A stretch of DNA of 64,000 nucleotides, taken from contig CAVUWD010000013.1 of the NCBI GenBank assembly GCA_963745025.1, positions 128,001-192,000 of the forward strand, read 5' to 3'. The notes below the pieces were generated by a model that was given only the letters and a program-made list of their open reading frames with translations, was not told the origin of the DNA and did no database searches. The position numbers and the translations under genes are program-made. The first letter of the stretch is position 1. Every line of letters begins with the position of its first letter. This stretch comes from an uncultured delta proteobacterium (GTDB taxonomy: Bacteria; Desulfobacterota; Binatia; JACPRU01). Shown here piece by piece: positions 1 to 9,220 of the stretch.

Positions 1-1811
1 GCGTCGCTCAACATGTTTTCCGAGGCGCGAGTGATCCCATCGCCTCCACTCAGGGTCCCGATGCCCTCGAGCATCGGAGTGTTGAACATCAGTGCTTGCC
101 ACGCCTCTTCGAAAAGGCTGCGCGCCGAGTCGCTCCTCCAGCCCAGCCGCGAAAGATTTACGAGGCCCCGGACGGGCTTTGGCTCCTGGCCGGGAAAGGC
201 GGCGGAGTCGGTCTGGTAGTGAAAAAGTCGCAGGCGGTCCCGGCGAAGCGCCGTGAGATCGACGAACACCGGCCGATCTTTCAATCTGGCCCAAGGGAGC
301 GCGAGATTGAGGTCGTAGTGGGCCGTGGCAAGGTCGGTGGCTACCAGGCCGGCCAGCAAGACGGAGATAGTCGACCGTGAGAGGAATCCCCGGCGCCGGA
401 AGAGTAGTAGAGCCGCGAAGGCCCCGAGGATGAGAAGCGCCCGCCACGCGCGGAAAGCGACGCTCTCCCCGAGCGATGCCAGCGCGTCGGCCCCGCGAAA
501 ACCGCCGCTCAGGAAAACGATCCCTTGCAGGTAGGCGGCCGGAAAAGCCTGCCGCGCTAACACGAAGACGGTGCTGATGGCCGCCAGCGTCGCCGCTGTG
601 ATCCACGCCAACCTCTCCGCGCGCGGCCGCTCTGCCAGCACCTCGTCTACGCCGAACGCGGCGAGCATGGCGACGCCGATGTGGGTGACGAAGAAGAACT
701 TCTCGGGGAACCGAAACCGACCGACGATCTGTGGCGCGATTTGAAGAAGGAACGGAAGCACCGGTAGATGCCTCCCTAGAGCGAGAAAGATCGCCGCACC
801 GGCAGCGGGTGTCCATAGCCAGCGCTCGCGAGCGAAGGCGGCCCCGACCACGGCCAGGCACAGCGGTACCAGGCCGAAATAGAGGCTCACGATCCACGGC
901 TGCGTACTTTCGAACATGGGGCAGAGATCTCCGGGACGGTCACCCGGCCCGAGCGCGCTGCCATGGGGGAACAGGAGCTGGAGGAGTGATACGGGCTCCA
1001 TGGACCAGCTCATCACCTCGACGTAGGGAAGTGCCTGGTTTCGCGCCGATTCGCGAATGTACTCAGCCGTGGGAAGGATCTGAACCGCGGTCAGGCACGC
1101 CGCGGTGAGCAGCGCAACGGCTAGAGAAAGAGTGGCGATGGGTAGCTCGCGCCATTTTCCGATGGATCTGTAGCCGGTCTCGGCTGCGGCCAAGCAGAGC
1201 GTCATCAGTAGGCTCTCGGGTGCGCCGGCGAGAATCTGCATCGCAACCAGAGCGGTGAACGCTAGCCAGCGGCCCACGGACGCCTTCTCGAGATGACGTT
1301 TCCAGGTGAGGAGAACCCATGGTGCCCACACGCCTGCCTGAAGATGATTCGTGACGTTCATCATCGACAGGAGATAGCCCCCGAGAGTGAACGTCAGGGC
1401 TCCGACGGCGGCTGCCGCAACGGAGCATCGGCGCGAGCGAATCAGGAACCACGCGCCGAGCAGCGCAACGAAGTAGTGGAATACGATGAAGACATCGAAG
1501 CCGAGGGGAAGGTCCAGAAGCAGAAGAATGCTCGGCGGATAAAACACTCCGGTCTGCAGACCGGCGAGAAATGGCGTGCCTAGAACGATCCACGGATTCC
1601 ACAACGGGATCATCCCCTGGCGCAGGCGACTCGCCAGAAACTCCTTGAAAGGAACCGCGAATACCAGCAGGTCGCGGAAGACGGGAATTTTTTGCCCGAG
1701 GAGCAGATCGAAGAAGAAGAGGGCCGTCCCGAGCAGGAGCGCTAAAATCGCGATCAGCGAGGATAACGGAAGACGCGGACGACTTGATGCAGGGAAGGGC
1801 TGGATGGGCAC
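1..1811 (-). CDS. YfhO-like (GT-C fold) polytopic membrane glycosyltransferase; 3' end runs off the left edge of the window
   Basis: Missing from the ORF track, consistent with its stop lying outside the window. Manual translation from GTG 1811: ...QKIPVFRDLLVFAVPFKEFLASRLRQGMIPLWNPWIVLGTPFLAGLQTGVFYPPS..., a clear paralog of 24219-26672. Start could be TTG 1838. Confidence 0.75.
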   Translation of the reverse strand, partial: MPIQPFPASSRPRLPLSSLIAILALLLGTALFFFDLLLGQKIPVFRDLLVFAVPFKEFLASRLRQGMIPLWNPWIVLGTPFLAGLQTGVFYPPSILLLLDLPLGFDVFIVFHYFVALLGAWFLIRSRRCSVAAAAVGALTFTLGGYLLSMMNVTNHLQAGVWAPWVLLTWKRHLEKASVGRWLAFTALVAMQILAGAPESLLMTLCLAAAETGYRSIGKWRELPIATLSLAVALLTAACLTAVQILPTAEYIRESARNQALPYVEVMSWSMEPVSLLQLLFPHGSALGPGDRPGDLCPMFESTQPWIVSLYFGLVPLCLAVVGAAFARERWLWTPAAGAAIFLALGRHLPVLPFLLQIAPQIVGRFRFPEKFFFVTHIGVAMLAAFGVDEVLAERPRAERLAWITAATLAAISTVFVLARQAFPAAYLQGIVFLSGGFRGADALASLGESVAFRAWRALLILGAFAALLLFRRRGFLSRSTISVLLAGLVATDLATAHYDLNLALPWARLKDRPVFVDLTALRRDRLRLFHYQTDSAAFPGQEPKPVRGLVNLSRLGWRSDSARSLFEEAWQALMFNTPMLEGIGTLSGGDGITRASENMLSD

Positions 1812-1836
1812 GGCCTGCGTCGCATTTCGCTTATCC

Positions 1837-1875
1837 AAAAAAGACGAGGGGGGCAACCGAAAGGCCGCCCCCCTC
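1837..1875 (-). terminator. Intrinsic terminator downstream of pilA
   Basis: Minus strand GAGGGGGGCGGCC-TTTC-GGTTGCCCCCCTC hairpin followed by GTCTTTTTT, about 30 nt after the pilA stop. Confidence 0.85.
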
Positions 1876-1908
1876 ATGCTTTGTTATGCTAGGCGAGATC
1901 CGAGTCAG

Positions 1909-2277
1909 TTACTGGGTGATGATCTGGCCGGTCGTGGACTGGAAAATCCAAGAATCCGTGCCGCCGGTCGGGTCCGCGGAGAGCGTATACGACGTCGCAC
2001 TCGAGGCGGAGACCGAATCGTTGACCGCGGTGCTCTGACGGAAGCCGAAGGTCTTGAGAGTGGCAACCGTGGCACCGCCGTAGCTGTTGCCGTTCGACCC
2101 GTAGTACGCCTCCATGGCGGTCGCCATGTTGTGGAGGTCCGACTTTGCCTTGGAGTCGGCCGCCTGCTGCTTGTACGTGGCGTACTGCGGGATCGCGATC
2201 GCAGCGAGAATGCCGATGATCGCCACCACGACGAGCAGCTCGATCAATGTGAAGCCCTGTTCGTTCCTCTTGTTCAT
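1909..2277 (-). CDS. pilA: Type IVa major pilin
   Basis: Class III signal MNKRNEQG|[24 protein letters not shown]; 114-aa mature protein; purine-rich RBS; last gene of the pil cluster. Confidence 0.95.
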
Positions 2278-2350
2278 TTTTTCCTCTCTCCTTTGTTGTG
2301 GCAGACCGTTCTGGTCGCTTGCCTCTCGCGATTTTGGTAGTCCGTCACTC

Positions 2351-2366
2351 TGCAAACAGAGGACCA
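2351..2366 (-). promoter_or_regulatory. Sigma-54 (-24/-12) promoter of pilA
   Basis: Minus strand TGGTCCTCTGTTTGCA = GG-N10-GC with TTGC at -12, about 75 nt upstream of the pilA ATG; the neighbouring gene is a sigma-54 activator. Confidence 0.75.
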
Positions 2367-2430: not shown

Positions 2431-2531
2431 TAGTGCATTCGGATTGCCTTGCACGTGTCTTCACAGCTCAGTGAGGTAGAGAGCAGAAAACGTCACCCGA
2501 CCATTTTTTGACAAAAATCGACGAGGCCCCG

Positions 2532-4607
2532 TCAATCTCGCACCTCCCGCAGATCGATATCGCCAAATCCGTACTTACTGAGCCGATGCCGGAGTGACCG
2601 ATAGTTGATGCCGAGGATCTCGGCAGCCCGCTTTCGGACGCCGCCAGCCCGTCGTAAAGCCTCTTCAAGAAGGCGTTTTTCGATGGCTTCGAGCTCCGCG
2701 TCGAGGTTCGATGATCCAGCCTCCATCCATTCGACTTCGGCCGTCGACGTCGCGCCCTCGCTGCCTGCCCCCGTCGCATTGTTGACAGTGGCCGGAGCCG
2801 CGCCGTTTTTTCGTAGGTCGGCCGGCAGGTCTTCTTCCGTGATTATCTCGCTCTCTGCCAGGGCGACGGCGTGTTCGATGATGTTCTCGAGCTCACGGAT
2901 GTTCCCCGGATAGGAGTGACTCAGAAGACGTCGCATCGCCGGTGCAGAAAGCTTACAGACGGGGTGGTGGAGGGATTCGGCGAACTGAGCGAGGAAGTGC
3001 TCGATCAGCATGGGAAGATCGTCGGTTCGCTCGCGTAGCGGGGGCACCTGTATGCGGATCACGTTCAGCCGGTAGAAGAGGTCCTCGCGGAAGGTTCCCC
3101 GGCTGACCTCGCCCTCGAGGTCCCGGTTGGTGGCAGCGATGACGCGGACGTCTACCGCGATCTGGGTCTGTGCGCCGACGGGCGTAAATGACCGCTCCTG
3201 CAGCACCCTCAGCAGCTTCACCTGCAGCGCGAGCGGCAGGTCGCCGACCTCGTCGAGGAAGATCGTGCCGCCGTCGGCTGCGCGGAATAGCCCTCGACGG
3301 TCCGCGACCGCGCCTGTGAACGCTCCACGCACGTGTCCGAATAGCTCGCTCTCGATCAGGTTGGCGGGAATGGCCGCACAGTTCACGACTACCATCGGCT
3401 TTTCGCGGCGAGGGCCGAGCGCGTGGATCGCGCGGGCCACCAGCTCCTTTCCAGTACCGCTCTCCCCAGTGATCAACACCGTCGATTCCGTCGGGGCCAC
3501 CTTGTGAATGAGCTCGACGATCTGCAGCATTCGCTGGCTGCGTCCGAGGAATCCGACGATCTCCGGTACGTTCGGACGCGGCCGCTGATCGTCGAGCGCC
3601 GCCGGCTCCTCGAGCGACTCTGACGAGAGCTTCCTGAGCTGTGTGACGTCCTGCAGGATGAAGAGCGATCCGATCAGGTTGTCATACGTGTCCGTGAGCG
3701 GGGCCCGGGTGAAGCGCAGGATTTGCTCCTCCGCGTCGGGCTGCGCCCGATGCGAGAGCTCGATCGGGATCGGGTCGATCACTCTCTTGGCTCCGACCGG
3801 AGGTCGAAGCGCCGGAAAGACGTCGGAGATTCGCCGGCCGATGAGCTCCGCCCCCGGTCGTCCGATGATCGTCTCGATGGCTTGATTGGCGGACTTGACG
3901 AAGCCCTCGGGGTCGGTGGTGAGAACACCGCTCTCGAGGTTCTGAACCAATACCTTCTGCAGATTTTCGATTCGCTGGAAGTCCTCCTGCGACTCGCGCA
4001 GCTCTCGCTGCGTGCTGGCGGCACGCTCGACGAGGATCGACGACAGGAAGGCGATCGAGAAGAAGGAGGCGATGTTGGCGGCGATGTAAACCACACCGAG
4101 GCCCGTCGCCGGCGCCGGCGGCGCGAATCCCAAGACGCTCGGCAACGCGTGGTAGTAGACGAGGTTCATCAGCGTGCCGTAGGTGAGCGACGACAGTGCC
4201 GCGGCGGTGTAGGCGCCATGGCGGAGCAGCAGGAAGGCCGCGCCGATGATGGCCAGGTTGTACCAGACGCCCATCGGGCTCTCGAGCGCGCCGGTCAGCA
4301 GCACCGCGATCGAGTTCAAGAGGATGTCGAAGACGACCTGTGCGAGCGCGAACACGCGCAGGTTGTCGATGCGCGCCACGCCGTAGGCCGACGCGGCGGA
4401 GAACGCGTAGGCCAGGACGATCAACCCGGTGACCCCGCGCAGCGGAAAATTCGGGTCCGAATCCGGAGCGACGTGGGTGCCGGCGACGGCGCCGAGGAAA
4501 ACCGTGACGATCAGCACGCGCGCGAAGAGCCAGCCGCGGAGACGCGCGCGAAGAGCCTCCGGGGCGAGGTCGGTGCTGTTAAGAGCGTGCGTCACAGATC
4601 GCGCCAC
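2532..4607 (-). CDS. Membrane-anchored sigma-54 activator: PilS-like TM + PAS fused to PilR-like AAA+ and Fis-type HTH (no kinase or receiver domain)
   Basis: N-terminal multi-TM region, PAS-like segment ending LQDVT, Walker A GESGTGKE, GAFTGA loop, Walker B IFLDE, FREDLFYRLNV, YPGNIRELEN, C-terminal HTH (RAAEILGINYRSLRHRL). Confidence 0.9.
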   Translation of the reverse strand: MARSVTHALNSTDLAPEALRARLRGWLFARVLIVTVFLGAVAGTHVAPDSDPNFPLRGVTGLIVLAYAFSAASAYGVARIDNLRVFALAQVVFDILLNSIAVLLTGALESPMGVWYNLAIIGAAFLLLRHGAYTAAALSSLTYGTLMNLVYYHALPSVLGFAPPAPATGLGVVYIAANIASFFSIAFLSSILVERAASTQRELRESQEDFQRIENLQKVLVQNLESGVLTTDPEGFVKSANQAIETIIGRPGAELIGRRISDVFPALRPPVGAKRVIDPIPIELSHRAQPDAEEQILRFTRAPLTDTYDNLIGSLFILQDVTQLRKLSSESLEEPAALDDQRPRPNVPEIVGFLGRSQRMLQIVELIHKVAPTESTVLITGESGTGKELVARAIHALGPRREKPMVVVNCAAIPANLIESELFGHVRGAFTGAVADRRGLFRAADGGTIFLDEVGDLPLALQVKLLRVLQERSFTPVGAQTQIAVDVRVIAATNRDLEGEVSRGTFREDLFYRLNVIRIQVPPLRERTDDLPMLIEHFLAQFAESLHHPVCKLSAPAMRRLLSHSYPGNIRELENIIEHAVALAESEIITEEDLPADLRKNGAAPATVNNATGAGSEGATSTAEVEWMEAGSSNLDAELEAIEKRLLEEALRRAGGVRKRAAEILGINYRSLRHRLSKYGFGDIDLREVRD

Positions 4608-4900: not shown

Positions 4901-6124
4901 CTACTGACTGATCACGGCGCCCAACTGGAAGATCGGCAGGTACATCGAAATCACCAAGCCGCCGATGACCACGCCGAGGAACACGATCACGATCGGCTCC
5001 ATCAACGCCGTCAAGTTTGAGATCGCGTTGTCGACTTCTTCCTCGTAGAAATCGGCGATCTTGGCGAGCATGGAATCGAGCGCGCCGGTGGTCTCGCCGA
5101 CGGCGATCATCTGGCAGACCATCGGCGGGAAGACCTTGCTCTGGATGAGCGGCTCCGCGATTGTCTTGCCTTCGGAGATCGACACGCGCGTGGCGAGCAC
5201 CGCCTTCTCCACGACGCGGTTGCCCGCGGTTCGCGCGGTGATGGCGAGCGCATCCAGAATGGGAACACCCGAGGCGATCAGCGTACCCAAAGTCCGGGTG
5301 AAGCGAGCGACCGAAGACTTACGGAAGAGGTCACCGAAGATCGGCAGACGGAGGAGAATCCCGTCGATCGCCAGCTTCCCTTGATCCGTGCGGTAGAGCC
5401 ACACGGTGGCCACCCCGATCAACACGAACACAACCGCGATGTACGGAGCATATCTGACGGTGAAGTTGCTCAAGTTGATCACGAACTGCGTCGGCGCGGG
5501 CAGCGCCTGTCCGAAGCTCGAGAACAGCTCGGCGAACACTGGGATCACGTAGATCAGCAGGATCGCCGTGACGGCCATCGCCACCGTCACGATGGACGCT
5601 GGATAGATCATGGCGCCCTTGATCTTCGCCCTGAGCCTGGCGGCCTTCTCCATGTAGATGGCCAGCCGGTTCATGATGTTGTCGAGAATACCGCCGACTT
5701 CGCCGGCCGCCACCATGTTGATGTAGAGCTCGTCGAAGAGCTTCGGGTGCTTGCGAAGGGCCTCGTTGAACGAGGCTCCCGCCTCGACGTCGTCCTTGAT
5801 CTGCTGGATCGCGCGTCGCAGCGGCTTGACCGTGGCCTGCGCCTGCAGGATGTCTAAGCACTGGACGATCGGCAGGCCGGCGTCGATCATCGTCGCGAAC
5901 TGCCGCGTGAAGACGACGATGTCGCGTGTCTTCACGGTTTCGCCGAGACCCGGAATGCTGATCTGCCGATCGAGCCCCTTGCCCTTTTCCTTGATCTTGG
6001 CCGGAAGCGGCTGAATGCGCTGTGTGCGCAGGCGCACGATCACTGCGTCGCGGGTCGTAGCCTCCATCTCGCCCCGCATCACCTCGCCCCTGGGCGAGAT
6101 CCCTTCCCATCGGAATACTGCCAT
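4901..6124 (-). CDS. pilC: Type IV pilus inner-membrane platform protein (GspF/PilC family)
   Basis: FTRQFATMIDAGLP, AGEVGGILD, GETTGALD, MYLPIF motifs; synteny. Confidence 0.95.
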   Translation of the reverse strand: MAVFRWEGISPRGEVMRGEMEATTRDAVIVRLRTQRIQPLPAKIKEKGKGLDRQISIPGLGETVKTRDIVVFTRQFATMIDAGLPIVQCLDILQAQATVKPLRRAIQQIKDDVEAGASFNEALRKHPKLFDELYINMVAAGEVGGILDNIMNRLAIYMEKAARLRAKIKGAMIYPASIVTVAMAVTAILLIYVIPVFAELFSSFGQALPAPTQFVINLSNFTVRYAPYIAVVFVLIGVATVWLYRTDQGKLAIDGILLRLPIFGDLFRKSSVARFTRTLGTLIASGVPILDALAITARTAGNRVVEKAVLATRVSISEGKTIAEPLIQSKVFPPMVCQMIAVGETTGALDSMLAKIADFYEEEVDNAISNLTALMEPIVIVFLGVVIGGLVISMYLPIFQLGAVISQ

Positions 6125-6162: not shown

Positions 6163-7254
6163 TCAGCGTCGCATCACCTTCGCGGCCGTTGGGGTCCCGG
6201 TCAGCATGGTATGCAGCTCGTCCGGCTCGGTCGCGTGACCCAGCGCCTCTTCGAAGGAGATCAGCCGCCGGCTGTGGAGATCCAACAAGGACTGGCTCAT
6301 CGTTTGCATGCCGTGCTTGGCCTGTCCGACCTGCATCTGCGAGTAGATCTGATGGATCTTCTGCTCGCGGATCAGGTTGCGGATCGCCGGGTTCGGGATC
6401 ATCACCTCGGCGGCGAGCACGCGGCCCTTGCCGTCCTGGCGCGGCAGCAGCTGCTGCGAGATCACCCCCTCCAGCACAACCGAGAGCTGCGCGCGGACCT
6501 GCGGCTGTTGGTACGGCGGAAAGACGTCGATCACGCGGTTGATCGTCTGCACCGCGGAATTGGTGTGCAGGGTCGAGAAGACGAGGTGACCGGTCTCGGC
6601 GACGACCAGCGCCGCCTCGATCGTCTCGAGGTCGCGCATTTCACCGATCAGCACGATGTCGGGGTCTTGCCGCAGCACGTGGCGGAGCGCGTGGTTGAAG
6701 CCCTTGGTGTCCGCGAATACTTCGCGCTGATTGACCAGGCAGCGCTTGCTCTCGTGCACGAACTCGATTGGATCCTCGACCGTGATCACGTGTTCGCGCC
6801 GCTCCATGTTGACCTTGTCGACCATCGAAGCGAGGCTAGTCGACTTGCCGCAGCCGGTCGGTCCGGTGACGAGCACGAGCCCGCGGGGCTGCTTGCAGAG
6901 CTCGTTCACGATCATCGGTAGGCCCAGCTCCTGGAACGACTGGATCTTGTAGGGAACGGCGCGGAAGGCGCCTCCGGTGGAGCCCTTCTGCAGGAAGACA
7001 TTGCCGCGAAACCGTGCAACACCGCGAACCGCGAAGGAGAAATCGAGCTCGAGGTCCTCCTCGAAGCGGTGCTTTTGCGCCTCGGTGAGCAGGCTGTAGC
7101 AGAGGTTCTTGGTATCCGTCGGCGTCAGCGGCGGATAAGGCAACGCCGTCAGGTCGCCGTTGATGCGAACCAGAGGCGGGCTGTCGACCGCGATGTGCAG
7201 GTCCGAAGCCCCTTTCTCGTTCATGATCTTCAGAAATTCTTGGATGTCTGCCAT
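6163..7254 (-). CDS. pilT: Type IV pilus retraction ATPase
   Basis: Walker A GPTGCGKST, EDPIEF, LRQDPD, His box TLHTN, AIRNLIRE motif. Confidence 0.95.
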   Translation of the reverse strand: MADIQEFLKIMNEKGASDLHIAVDSPPLVRINGDLTALPYPPLTPTDTKNLCYSLLTEAQKHRFEEDLELDFSFAVRGVARFRGNVFLQKGSTGGAFRAVPYKIQSFQELGLPMIVNELCKQPRGLVLVTGPTGCGKSTSLASMVDKVNMERREHVITVEDPIEFVHESKRCLVNQREVFADTKGFNHALRHVLRQDPDIVLIGEMRDLETIEAALVVAETGHLVFSTLHTNSAVQTINRVIDVFPPYQQPQVRAQLSVVLEGVISQQLLPRQDGKGRVLAAEVMIPNPAIRNLIREQKIHQIYSQMQVGQAKHGMQTMSQSLLDLHSRRLISFEEALGHATEPDELHTMLTGTPTAAKVMRR

Positions 7255-7305: not shown

Positions 7306-8997
7306 TCAGTCCGAAACGGTGACGCGGACTACCTCGTCGACCGTAGTAATCCCCTCTCGCACCTTGCGAAGGCCGGCGGCCCGCAGTGTCTGCATGCCGA
7401 GCGACACGGATTTGCGCTTGATCTCCACCGCGGAGGCTCCTACCAGCACCGCTTCGCAGATCTCCTCCCGCATCGGCAGCACCTCGTAGAGCGCGATCCG
7501 GCCTTTGAATCCGGTCGCGCTGCACTCGTCGCAGCCCGTCCCGTGATAGAATTTCACCCCGTCGAGATCCGCGAGGCGGAAGCCGACCTGAAGTAGCGCC
7601 TCGCGGGGATATTCGGTCTCTGTCTTGCAGCGCGGGCAAATGACCCGAGCCAGGCGCTGCGCGAGAATGAGGTTGAGCGACGAGGAGACGAGGAATGGCT
7701 CGACGCCCATGTTGAGCAAGCGATTGATCGTCGAGGGAGCATCGTTGGTGTGGAGTGTCGAGAGCACGAGGTGGCCAGTGAGCGCGGCCTTGACGGCGAT
7801 CTCGGCGGTCTCGAAATCGCGAATCTCGCCGACCATGATCACGTCGGGGTCCTGACGCAGAAAGGAGCGAAGCGCCGCAGCGAAGCTGAAGCCGATGTCG
7901 TCGTGGATCTGCACTTGATTGATGCCGACGAGGTTGTATTCGACCGGGTCCTCGACGGTGGAGATGTTGTCGGTGATGCGGTTGAGCTCCGAGAGCGCCG
8001 AATAGAGGGTCGTCGTCTTGCCGCTGCCCGTGGGGCCGGTGACGAGCACCATGCCGTGCGGCCGCGAGATCGCCTCCTTGAAATCGCGAAGCGCCGCGTC
8101 CTCGAATCCGAGCTTCGTCATGTCGAGCTGTAGGCTCGACTTGTCGAGCAGTCGGAGCACGATCTTCTCGCCGAAGATCGTCGGGATGACCGAGACGCGG
8201 AAATCCATCTCCTTGGAGCCGGGCAGCCGGAGCTTGATGCGTCCGTCCTGCGGCAACCGGCGCTCGGCGATGTCGAGCGACGCCATGATCTTCAGCCGCG
8301 AGATCAGGGGATTCTTAAACTTGAGCGGCGGCTTCATGATCTCGTAGAGCACGCCGTCGATGCGAAAACGCACGCGCAGCATCCTCTCGAAGGGCTCGAT
8401 GTGGATGTCGCTCGCGCGCTTGCGGATCGCGTCGGTCAGCAAGGCGTTCACGAGCTTGACGACCGGAGCCTCTTCGGTTGCGCGCTCGAGCTCCTTCAGG
8501 TCGATCTCTTGTTCGTCGCGGACGAGCTCGAGGTCCTCGCTCTCGATCTTCTCGAGCACTTCCTGGATGGCGCTTCCGCCCTCGTAGAAATGGTCGATCG
8601 CTTTGCGGACCGAGGACAGCTTGGCGAGGACGACGCGGACGTCGTAGCCGGTGAGGAACTTGACCTCGTTGATCGCGACCAAGTTCGAGGGATCGGCCAT
8701 GGCGAGCGTCAGCGTGGATCCGGCGAGATTGAAGGGCAGCAGGTGATGTTTCCACGCGAGCGAGACCGGGATCAGCTGAAGGACTTCGGAGGCGATCTCG
8801 AGGCTCATCGGATCGACGATCGGCAGCCGGTATTCCCTCTCGAGATGGGATACGAGCTGCTCCTCGTTGACGACGCCGAGGCGCACGAGATGCGCAGCGA
8901 GGATCCCCCCCTGCTGCTCCTGGTCCGTGGTCGCCGAGACCAGCTGATCTTGGGTGATCAGCGACCGCTTGAGGAGGAGTTCGCCGAGGCGCGACAT
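7306..8997 (-). CDS. pilB: Type IV pilus extension ATPase with N-terminal MshEN-like domain
   Basis: MSRLGELLL start, ASDIHIEP, GPTGSGKTT, tetracysteine CPRC...CDEC. Start moved from the ORF-track position to ATG 8997. Confidence 0.95.
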   Translation of the reverse strand: MSRLGELLLKRSLITQDQLVSATTDQEQQGGILAAHLVRLGVVNEEQLVSHLEREYRLPIVDPMSLEIASEVLQLIPVSLAWKHHLLPFNLAGSTLTLAMADPSNLVAINEVKFLTGYDVRVVLAKLSSVRKAIDHFYEGGSAIQEVLEKIESEDLELVRDEQEIDLKELERATEEAPVVKLVNALLTDAIRKRASDIHIEPFERMLRVRFRIDGVLYEIMKPPLKFKNPLISRLKIMASLDIAERRLPQDGRIKLRLPGSKEMDFRVSVIPTIFGEKIVLRLLDKSSLQLDMTKLGFEDAALRDFKEAISRPHGMVLVTGPTGSGKTTTLYSALSELNRITDNISTVEDPVEYNLVGINQVQIHDDIGFSFAAALRSFLRQDPDVIMVGEIRDFETAEIAVKAALTGHLVLSTLHTNDAPSTINRLLNMGVEPFLVSSSLNLILAQRLARVICPRCKTETEYPREALLQVGFRLADLDGVKFYHGTGCDECSATGFKGRIALYEVLPMREEICEAVLVGASAVEIKRKSVSLGMQTLRAAGLRKVREGITTVDEVVRVTVSD

Positions 8998-9220
8998 TGC
9001 TACCGGTTCGTGAGGCGATCGATCCGTCCGAGGCGGTTGCGCGGACGACGTCTTCGATCGACGTGATCCCATGTCGGAGCGGTGTGCCGTCCTCTCATGG
9101 CGACTTCTTTCTCAGCGGTCTTCATCCGACGGTCACCAAGAAAAGGCTAACGTAGCGCCGACGCGGGAGTCAAATCGGGCGCCGACGACTCGTTCCCGGG
9201 CAGGAGCGCCGGCGCGATCG

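Follow-up and report, generated by a model that had tools for sequence, protein, structure and literature searches.

Domain fusion of PilS and PilR in Binatia: a putative phosphorylation-independent sigma-54 activator encoded beside its pilin gene

The fused gene and its protein

We analysed a 64,000-nucleotide stretch (the window) of contig CAVUWD010000013.1 from an uncultured bacterium of the class Binatia. According to the open reading frames (ORFs) of the window, pilB, pilT, pilC, a fused pilS-pilR gene and pilA lie in this order on its minus strand. The fused gene, which is the subject of this report, was listed as a single unbroken ORF with a GTG start and a TGA stop at 2534-2532, in agreement with an initial annotation that had described one uninterrupted 691-aa ORF between pilC and pilA. 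Its product is a domain fusion of PilS and PilR, a putative phosphorylation-independent sigma-54 activator encoded beside its pilin gene. The genes of the locus are as follows.

2532..4607, minus strand: fused pilS-pilR gene, 691 aa (ORF; 33 further clusters with the same architecture)
7306-9072, minus strand: pilB (ORF; Pfam T2SSE and MshEN matches among pilB, pilT and pilC)
6163-7254, minus strand: pilT (ORF, upstream of the fused gene)
4901-6124, minus strand: pilC (ORF; T2SSF)
1909..2277, minus strand: pilA, type IVa major pilin, 122 aa (ATG at 2277, stop at 1909; N_methyl PF07963 and TIGR02532, both above cut-off)

Domain searches, pairwise alignments and an AlphaFold2 model divided the 691-aa protein into the following parts.

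4008..4550, minus strand: membrane sensor module 6TM_PilS, residues 20-200 (PF25323 at 31.1 bits; cut-off, 27)
3633..3941, minus strand: cytoplasmic PAS domain, residues 223-325 (PAS_4, PAS_9 and PAS matches, with PAS_4 at 223-325)
3549..3632, minus strand: PAS-to-AAA+ linker, residues 326-353, 28 aa, containing the fusion junction (pairwise alignments)
3048..3548, minus strand: sigma-54 interaction AAA+ core, residues 354-520 (Sigma54_activat, PF00158, 245 bits)
2793..3035, minus strand: AAA+ lid (AAA_lid_14), residues 525-605 (PF25601, 89.6 bits)
2571..2693, minus strand: Fis-type HTH_8 DNA-binding domain, residues 639-679 (PF02954, 49.4 bits; AlphaFold2)

Pfam gave no match to HisKA (PF00512), HATPase_c (PF02518) or Response_reg (PF00072) in the 691-aa protein at E<=0.1. 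No NCBIfam equivalog scored above cut-off; there were many matches to sigma-54 activators, and all 25 of those listed begin at residue 202 or later. The AAA+ core contains the Walker A motif (GESGTGKE), the GAFTGA loop and the Walker B motif (FLDE). Across a 45-sequence family alignment, residues G381-E388, G428, T431-A433 and D452-E453 and many arginines are invariant, and GAFTGA is found in 14 of the 15 sequences of alignment A1, the other one containing GASTGA. All of the solved structures that matched the protein (n=35) cover only residues ~340-682, the closest being ZraR, FleQ, NifA and NtrC1. With the AAA+ motifs and HTH_8 present, a -24/-12 promoter at pilA and rpoN encoded by the genome, the protein appears to belong to the bacterial enhancer-binding protein (bEBP) family.

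The hydropathy profile showed peaks at residues 25-43, 59-80, 85-103, 110-128 and 175-197 and a weaker one at 131-155, with no hydrophobic segment after residue 215. A positive charge at the N-terminus is consistent with six helices whose two ends both lie in the cytoplasm. An AlphaFold2 monomer model was built from the 45-sequence alignment (mean predicted local distance difference test score, pLDDT, 78.7; predicted template modelling score, pTM, 0.41). It places the helices of the membrane bundle at 16-44, 56-79, 83-104, 111-151 and 171-223, and the last transmembrane (TM) segment, TM6, extends unbroken into the PAS domain as a single helix (171-223). The predicted PAS fold has its strands at 227-320, followed by a helix (322-332). 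The linker that follows lacks predicted secondary structure at residues 333-357, with pLDDT <50 at 332-344, and both its length and its sequence vary across the family. A second disordered stretch (602-633) is predicted between the AAA+ part and the helix-turn-helix (HTH). The modelled fold leaves no space for a concealed dimerization and histidine phosphotransfer (DHp) domain or a receiver domain.

These results confirm, point by point, the domain order that the initial annotation had read from the sequence. The multi-TM N-terminus that it described was recovered as the 6TM_PilS match, in the hydropathy profile and as the AlphaFold2 bundle; its coiled coil corresponds to the helix 171-223 of the model; its PAS-like domain is the one matched by PAS_4; and its linker of ~25 aa at nt 3550-3630 was placed at residues 326-353. 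The intact AAA+ core (GESGTGKE, GAFTGA, FLDE) and the HTH that it reported are supported by the Sigma54_activat and HTH_8 matches and by the invariant motif residues. The domain search that it had called for returned 6TM_PilS-PAS-Sigma54_activat-HTH_8 without HisKA, HATPase_c or Response_reg, and the absence of an H-box, an HATPase and a receiver that it had noted held both in Pfam and in the AlphaFold2 fold.

Ancestry and conservation of the fusion

The fused protein was aligned with the separate PilS and PilR of a Methylomirabilota locus (L064). Residues 18-329 align to PilS 20-335 (28% identity, E=5e-21) and residues 340-681 align to PilR 127-458 (48% identity, E=5e-105), and only about ten residues (about 330-339) have homology to neither. 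Canonical PilS consists of 6TM_PilS (23-203), PAS (224-332), HisKA (346-406) and HATPase_c (452-560), and canonical PilR of the receiver domain REC (5-114), Sigma54_activat (143-310), the lid and HTH_8. The junction alignments thus indicate that the protein is PilS up to the end of its PAS domain joined to PilR from its inter-domain linker on, and that, relative to the parents, ~230 residues have been lost from PilS and ~126 from PilR. Since the PilS homology ends before HisKA and neither HisKA nor HATPase_c was matched, the protein is not a histidine kinase; since the PilR alignment starts after REC and PF00072 was not matched, it is not a response regulator either.

Unfused genes in the order pilB-pilT-pilC-pilS-pilR were found outside Binatia in Methylomirabilota (L064), Limnocylindrales (L060) and a Bacteriovoracaceae locus (L022). 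The same order was seen with fragmented ORFs in L025, and in a Myxococcota locus (L023) pilS and pilR are adjacent and separate. The canonical pairs and the outgroup bEBPs were taken from a scan of related loci, which returns a sample of all bEBPs and not a census. In a quick IQ-TREE tree of the AAA+-HTH segment (110 rows), the 19 fused AAA+ halves formed one clade (SH-like approximate likelihood ratio test, SH-aLRT, 100), which nests in a 36-row clade (SH-aLRT 99) with seven of eight PilRs adjoining a PilS gene. The 36-row PilR clade included no other bEBP of the genome, although 19 of them were in the tree. The junction alignments, the unfused syntenic loci outside Binatia and the placement in the PilR clade show that the predicted protein is a sensor fused to an output and that both phosphotransfer modules have been lost, as the initial annotation had proposed.

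The same architecture was found in relatives, where the initial annotation had suggested looking for it. Among the 40 matches listed by a homology search with residues 1-345, 34 clusters (the window protein included; identity 32-100%) carry Sigma54_activat without HisKA, HATPase_c or REC, and the next four matches are canonical PilS kinases. Full-length sensor matches were obtained in 26 of the 61 Binatia genomes, representing nine of 17 families. In 18 of 20 Binatia loci, a fused gene encoding 673-771 aa comes after pilB-(pilT)-pilC; the remaining two loci stop at a contig edge just past pilC. A pilin gene was detected downstream by BLAST in 14 of the 18 loci, and the contig of another (L105) ends 115 nt beyond the fused gene. 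The other three (L098, L107 and L108) have no pilin gene within 3.5 kb downstream, so adjacency to pilA is not universal. Pfam recovered the fused architecture in all five full-length proteins examined. The long frames in L106 (1464 aa) and G042 (1493 aa) are due to a frame that is open upstream, and the gene there is of ~676 aa like its neighbours.

A fused gene could also be produced by a deletion that joined two genes in one metagenome-assembled genome (MAG), so that the product would be an assembly artefact or the non-functional remnant of a decaying pseudogene. Such decay would fit the in-frame stops in two of the 26 Binatia copies, a TAA in G021 (G021:C17:1596-2531) and a TAG in G040 (G040:C104:957-1913). 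In L013 the stop splits the membrane part from a 505-aa PAS-AAA+-HTH ORF. The stops in G021 and G040 could be sequencing error, decay or a split form. However, the frame and the architecture recur in 34 clusters, in 26 genomes of nine families and in metagenome contigs of three studies, and the catalytic motifs are invariant. The PAS-AAA+ junction is bridged by contigs of three public DNA runs from the three studies (X1, 3210-4602; X2, 3442-4087; X3, 3250-4045), which have nt 3442-4045 in common. A read-level check across 3500-3700 had been advised, and these contigs span the junction with no assembly deletion. The artefact or pseudogene reading, which we consider next to impossible, is refuted by the recurrence across clusters, genomes, loci and independent contigs and by the invariant motifs, and the fusion was confirmed as real and conserved.

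We then asked how many times the fusion had arisen. When the sensor half was used in an exhaustive profile search, 797 proteins scored at E<1e-30, and the best 150 of them were mostly PilS kinases of 530-600 aa. Among these 150 were 14 matches of at least 610 aa with an N-terminal sensor, nine of them fused, which with P0032 made ten fused representatives. Quick trees were built for each half, and in both of them 27 fused proteins formed a Binatia clade, with P0064 and P0117 outside it; P0129 was outside in the AAA+ tree only. P0064 is encoded on a metagenome contig of 49% GC in the order pilB-pilB-pilT-pilC-fused gene-pilA (L117). Among the 120 matches listed for its sensor, the nearest was its fused sibling P0206 (86%), and PilS kinases came next (40-49% identity); the matches included a further fused protein, P0307, and no Binatia member. 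A careful tree of 48 rows required four label changes, and none of 200 bootstrap trees united the fused proteins. Approximately unbiased (AU) tests of a single fused clade gave p=0.55, 0.83 and 0.77 for the quick trees, and the single clade was not rejected; the constrained trees were likelier than the free ones, indicating that the quick-tree searches were poor. Against the careful tree the single clade was again not rejected (p=0.21, likelihood cost 20.3). Our first reading of the quick trees as independent fusions was dropped, because the AU tests do not reject one clade. Repeated fusion, at which the divergent fused proteins beyond the Binatia clade hint, is favoured but not established.

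The PilS sensor module was also found on a different output. In P0188 (751 aa, on a 308-kb contig of the European Nucleotide Archive, ENA), a Beta-lactamase-fold domain (PF00144, residues 355-625) is attached to a 6TM_PilS + PAS sensor. This protein represents another output swapped onto the module, replacing the kinase or the AAA+ activator.

The pilA promoter and the surrounding genes

The region around pilA contains three further features.

2351..2366, minus strand: sigma-54-type promoter TGGTCC-N5-TTGCA (highest-scoring -24/-12 match of the intergenic region; lies 73 nt upstream of the ATG of pilA)
2492..2513, minus strand: candidate enhancer (upstream activating sequence) TGTCA-N13-TGAC (18 nt past the regulator stop, 147 nt upstream of the promoter)
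1844..1877, minus strand: terminator-like hairpin with a 15-bp stem, 10 G-C pairs and a T-run (~30 nt past the pilA stop; called strong)

The promoter in the window scored 12.5 of 15, a score that was reached by seven of 500 shuffles. A -24/-12 element was found upstream of pilA in all 14 Binatia loci in which the motif search found a downstream pilin gene, the best match lying 53-178 nt upstream of the pilin start. In ten of these loci it reads TGGCAC-like-N5-TTGCW, with a score reached by 0-2 of 500 shuffles. The four loci of family f1, the window's own family, have TGGTCC- or TGGTCT-N5-TTGC, and 7-45 of 500 shuffles reach the score. A near-consensus sigma-54 promoter also lies upstream of pilA in the P0064 locus (L117).

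Three blocks are conserved among the four f1 intergenic regions: TTGTCA...GTGAC shortly past the regulator stop (window 2513-2492), the promoter and GGTCTGCCA in the 5' untranslated region (5'UTR). The pattern TGTC-N9-19-GAC occurs upstream of the promoter in seven of 15 loci (mean after shuffling 1.9; none of 300 shuffles gave 7 or more), and it lies 17-22 nt past the stop codon in five loci, which belong to three families (f1, f4 and f10). Since this motif was chosen post hoc from the data, the site is a candidate enhancer only, a lead. The GGTCTGCCA block of the pilA 5'UTR occupies window 2299-2307 (minus strand), past the promoter and ahead of the ribosome-binding site, and is kept in all four f1 loci.

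The pilin encoded in the window has the leader MNKRNEQG, and its N-terminal helix (residues 8-31) is invariant in all 14 adjoining Binatia pilins. The genome contains one rpoN match (208.5 bits). A phmmer scan found 22 other sigma-54 activator ORFs, and PF00158 gave 27 matches.

The gene neighbourhoods differ on either side of the conserved core. Directly downstream of pilA in the window, a big polytopic membrane protein of at least 625 aa is encoded at 3-1877 (minus strand) and extends past the window edge; it gave no Pfam match at E<=0.1. Its listed ATG falls within the pilA terminator hairpin, suggesting that the real start may be further downstream. An 838-aa membrane-like ORF follows the pilin in L109. 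In L107 and L108 (family f13) the fused gene is followed by a ~327-aa protein and an ABC-transporter ATPase, not by pilA, and in L117 a 304-aa protein, an ABC ATPase and a permease come after pilA; we take this downstream gene set to resemble pilGHI of Myxococcus. Other ORFs, none of them a pilin gene, follow the fused gene in L098 (family f5). A tandem pair of pilB-like ATPase genes lies upstream of pilT in L111 (10715-14355), which is from a same-genus relative, and in L117 (1049-4492).

A second 6TM_PilS protein is encoded elsewhere in the genome (G000:C6:385110-387962; L003 5110-7962, minus strand). It is a 491-aa kinase with 6TM_PilS and HATPase_c and no PAS match, and it is followed by a 444-aa HATPase_c protein. 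Its neighbours include neither pil genes nor a bEBP. Frames of 450-600 aa that resemble it recur across other Binatia genomes.

In a soil metatranscriptome run (X18), a 259-nt contig matched window 3954-4212, within the sensor-coding part, with three differences. This contig hints weakly at transcription in nature and is too little for an expression claim.

Proposed mechanism and comparison with known regulators

The full explanation that we consider best, and probably correct, is that the protein is a one-component, integral-membrane sigma-54 activator of pilA derived from an adjacent pilS-pilR pair. It would have originated by loss of the HisKA/DHp and HATPase_c domains of PilS and of the receiver of PilR, from the end of PAS to the inter-domain linker of PilR. 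The six helices would anchor the protein in the inner membrane, with PAS, AAA+ and HTH facing the cytoplasm. The protein would bind upstream of pilA, where ATP hydrolysis and the GAFTGA loop would open the sigma-54 promoter. Without DHp/H-box and HATPase_c it is unable to autophosphorylate, and without a receiver domain no kinase can phosphorylate it; for the latter reason the 491-aa 6TM_PilS kinase is unable to act on it. We propose instead that formation of the AAA+ ring is controlled, with no phosphotransfer, by the membrane and PAS module. The flexible linkers (~333-357 and 602-633) would allow tethered protomers to form the ring and to reach DNA. If the regulator, PilC and the pilin are all inserted into the membrane during translation, the pilA promoter and its locus should stay near the membrane.

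The PAS-to-AAA+ linker may be read differently, as a site at which a protease cuts to free a soluble, constitutively active AAA+-HTH fragment from sequestration at the membrane; until then the tether would hold the activator apart from its promoter. Its predicted disorder and its variability would suit such a site, and there is precedent in trans for an off-state in which a bEBP is kept at the membrane, RedR2 being kept there by BtdS in the accessible part of PMC10084136. However, no protease gene was seen and the linker contains no conserved cleavage motif; in P0064 it is very short (a gap of ~3 residues); and irreversible activation is poorly suited to a homeostatic pilin loop. We regard this proteolytic release as highly improbable and favour an activator that remains tethered.

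By analogy with Pseudomonas PilS, the signal is most likely the pilin pool of the inner membrane, which would place pilin synthesis under direct feedback, with high pilin turning the activator off. The accessible text of PMC6058289, citing Kilmury and Burrows 2016, states that the six transmembrane segments of PilS permit direct contact with PilA for pilin autoregulation. A complex prediction with sensor residues 1-225 and PilA residues 9-62 gave a score of 0.00 and no model, which is evidence neither way. The same protein might act on the same target in response to another signal, such as a PAS ligand or redox state, membrane tension or lipid state, with no pilA feedback loop. The PAS domain is kept in all members, pilA is not adjacent in three of 18 loci, and P0188, in which the sensor is attached to a beta-lactamase-fold domain, points to an input module of general use. 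On the other hand, the PilS segments that are reported to touch PilA have their homologous counterpart in the 6TM module, which is conserved across the family, and the invariant N-terminal helix in 14 of 14 adjacent pilins means that a conserved partner is available. A signal other than pilin is unlikely in our judgement, though not to the degree of proteolytic release. The most specific form of the pilin-sensing proposal is that pilin occupancy of the six-helix bundle leads to the sigma-54 open complex without phosphoryl transfer and that this shortcut evolved repeatedly (Binatia, P0064/P0206, P0117 and P0307). We put it forward tentatively, as possible but doubtful in its entirety.

Several points weigh against a membrane-bound, pilin-sensing activator of pilA. 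The AlphaFold2 model is a monomer with a pTM of 0.41 and is silent on domain coupling and oligomers. The gene was shown in only 26 of the 61 Binatia genomes searched, and a pilin gene is not always close by (3 of 18 loci lack one). All family members come from MAGs and are known from sequence alone. The -24 element appears weaker (TGGTCC) in the window's own family, and the enhancer motif was selected after inspection of the data. Pilin sensing is an analogy with Pseudomonas PilS. A membrane-tethered hexameric ring is without precedent in the literature searched, so its feasibility is assumed.

The protein resembles the two-component system PilS-PilR of Pseudomonas aeruginosa, which is present also in Myxococcus and Geobacter, in its position after pilC, its 6TM_PilS + PAS sensor, its PilR-clade AAA+/HTH_8 output and the sigma-54 pilin promoter. 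Unlike that system, it is one polypeptide and its output domain is tethered to the membrane. ToxR, CadC and TcpP are membrane-bound one-component activators with one TM helix and an OmpR-type winged helix, which lack an ATPase and work at sigma-70 promoters. The fused protein is like them in principle, in that one membrane protein contains the sensor and the DNA-binding output and reaches DNA from the membrane, but it is not homologous to them and would have to form an AAA+ ring and act on sigma-54. With the cytoplasmic one-component bEBPs NifA, NorR and DmpR/XylR it shares the lack of phosphorylation and a sensory domain before AAA+, PAS being the proximal input. Those proteins are soluble, whereas the fused protein is predicted to be a six-helix integral membrane protein whose sensor was inherited from a histidine kinase. 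Cytoplasmic one-component bEBPs that have PAS or GAF inputs are common. In Desulfovibrio vulgaris, 15 of 37 enhancer-binding proteins are cytoplasmic one-component proteins with PAS, GAF or V4R input, according to the accessible part of PMC4641369. The activity of a sigma-54 activator is also tied to the membrane in RedR2-BtdS and PspF-PspA, which the accessible part of PMC10084136 presents as bEBPs under membrane control in trans; there a soluble bEBP is bound by another protein, which is in or associated with the membrane, whereas here the membrane domain would be in the same chain.

The initial annotation knew of no described example, and the literature agrees as far as it was covered: full-text searches, with most subscription journals and supplements outside them, found no description of a fused PilS-PilR or of an integral-membrane bEBP. 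The accessible part of a bEBP review describes regulatory, AAA+ and DNA-binding domains and does not mention a membrane-integral type (PMC7175178). Database names mislead: several members are called 'response regulator PilR' (JGI), and 'PAS domain S-box protein' is also used.

The usual view of bEBPs is that they are soluble and have a receiver, PAS, GAF or V4R module as their regulatory domain. A family of six-helix membrane activators raises the question of how an AAA+ ring and DNA looping would work from a tether. As a compact switch from a membrane sensor to sigma-54, such proteins might be of use in engineering. The family may also be regarded as a natural experiment on how the sensor module of a histidine kinase passes its signal after the kinase has been lost, and it could separate what PilS senses from PilS phosphorylation.

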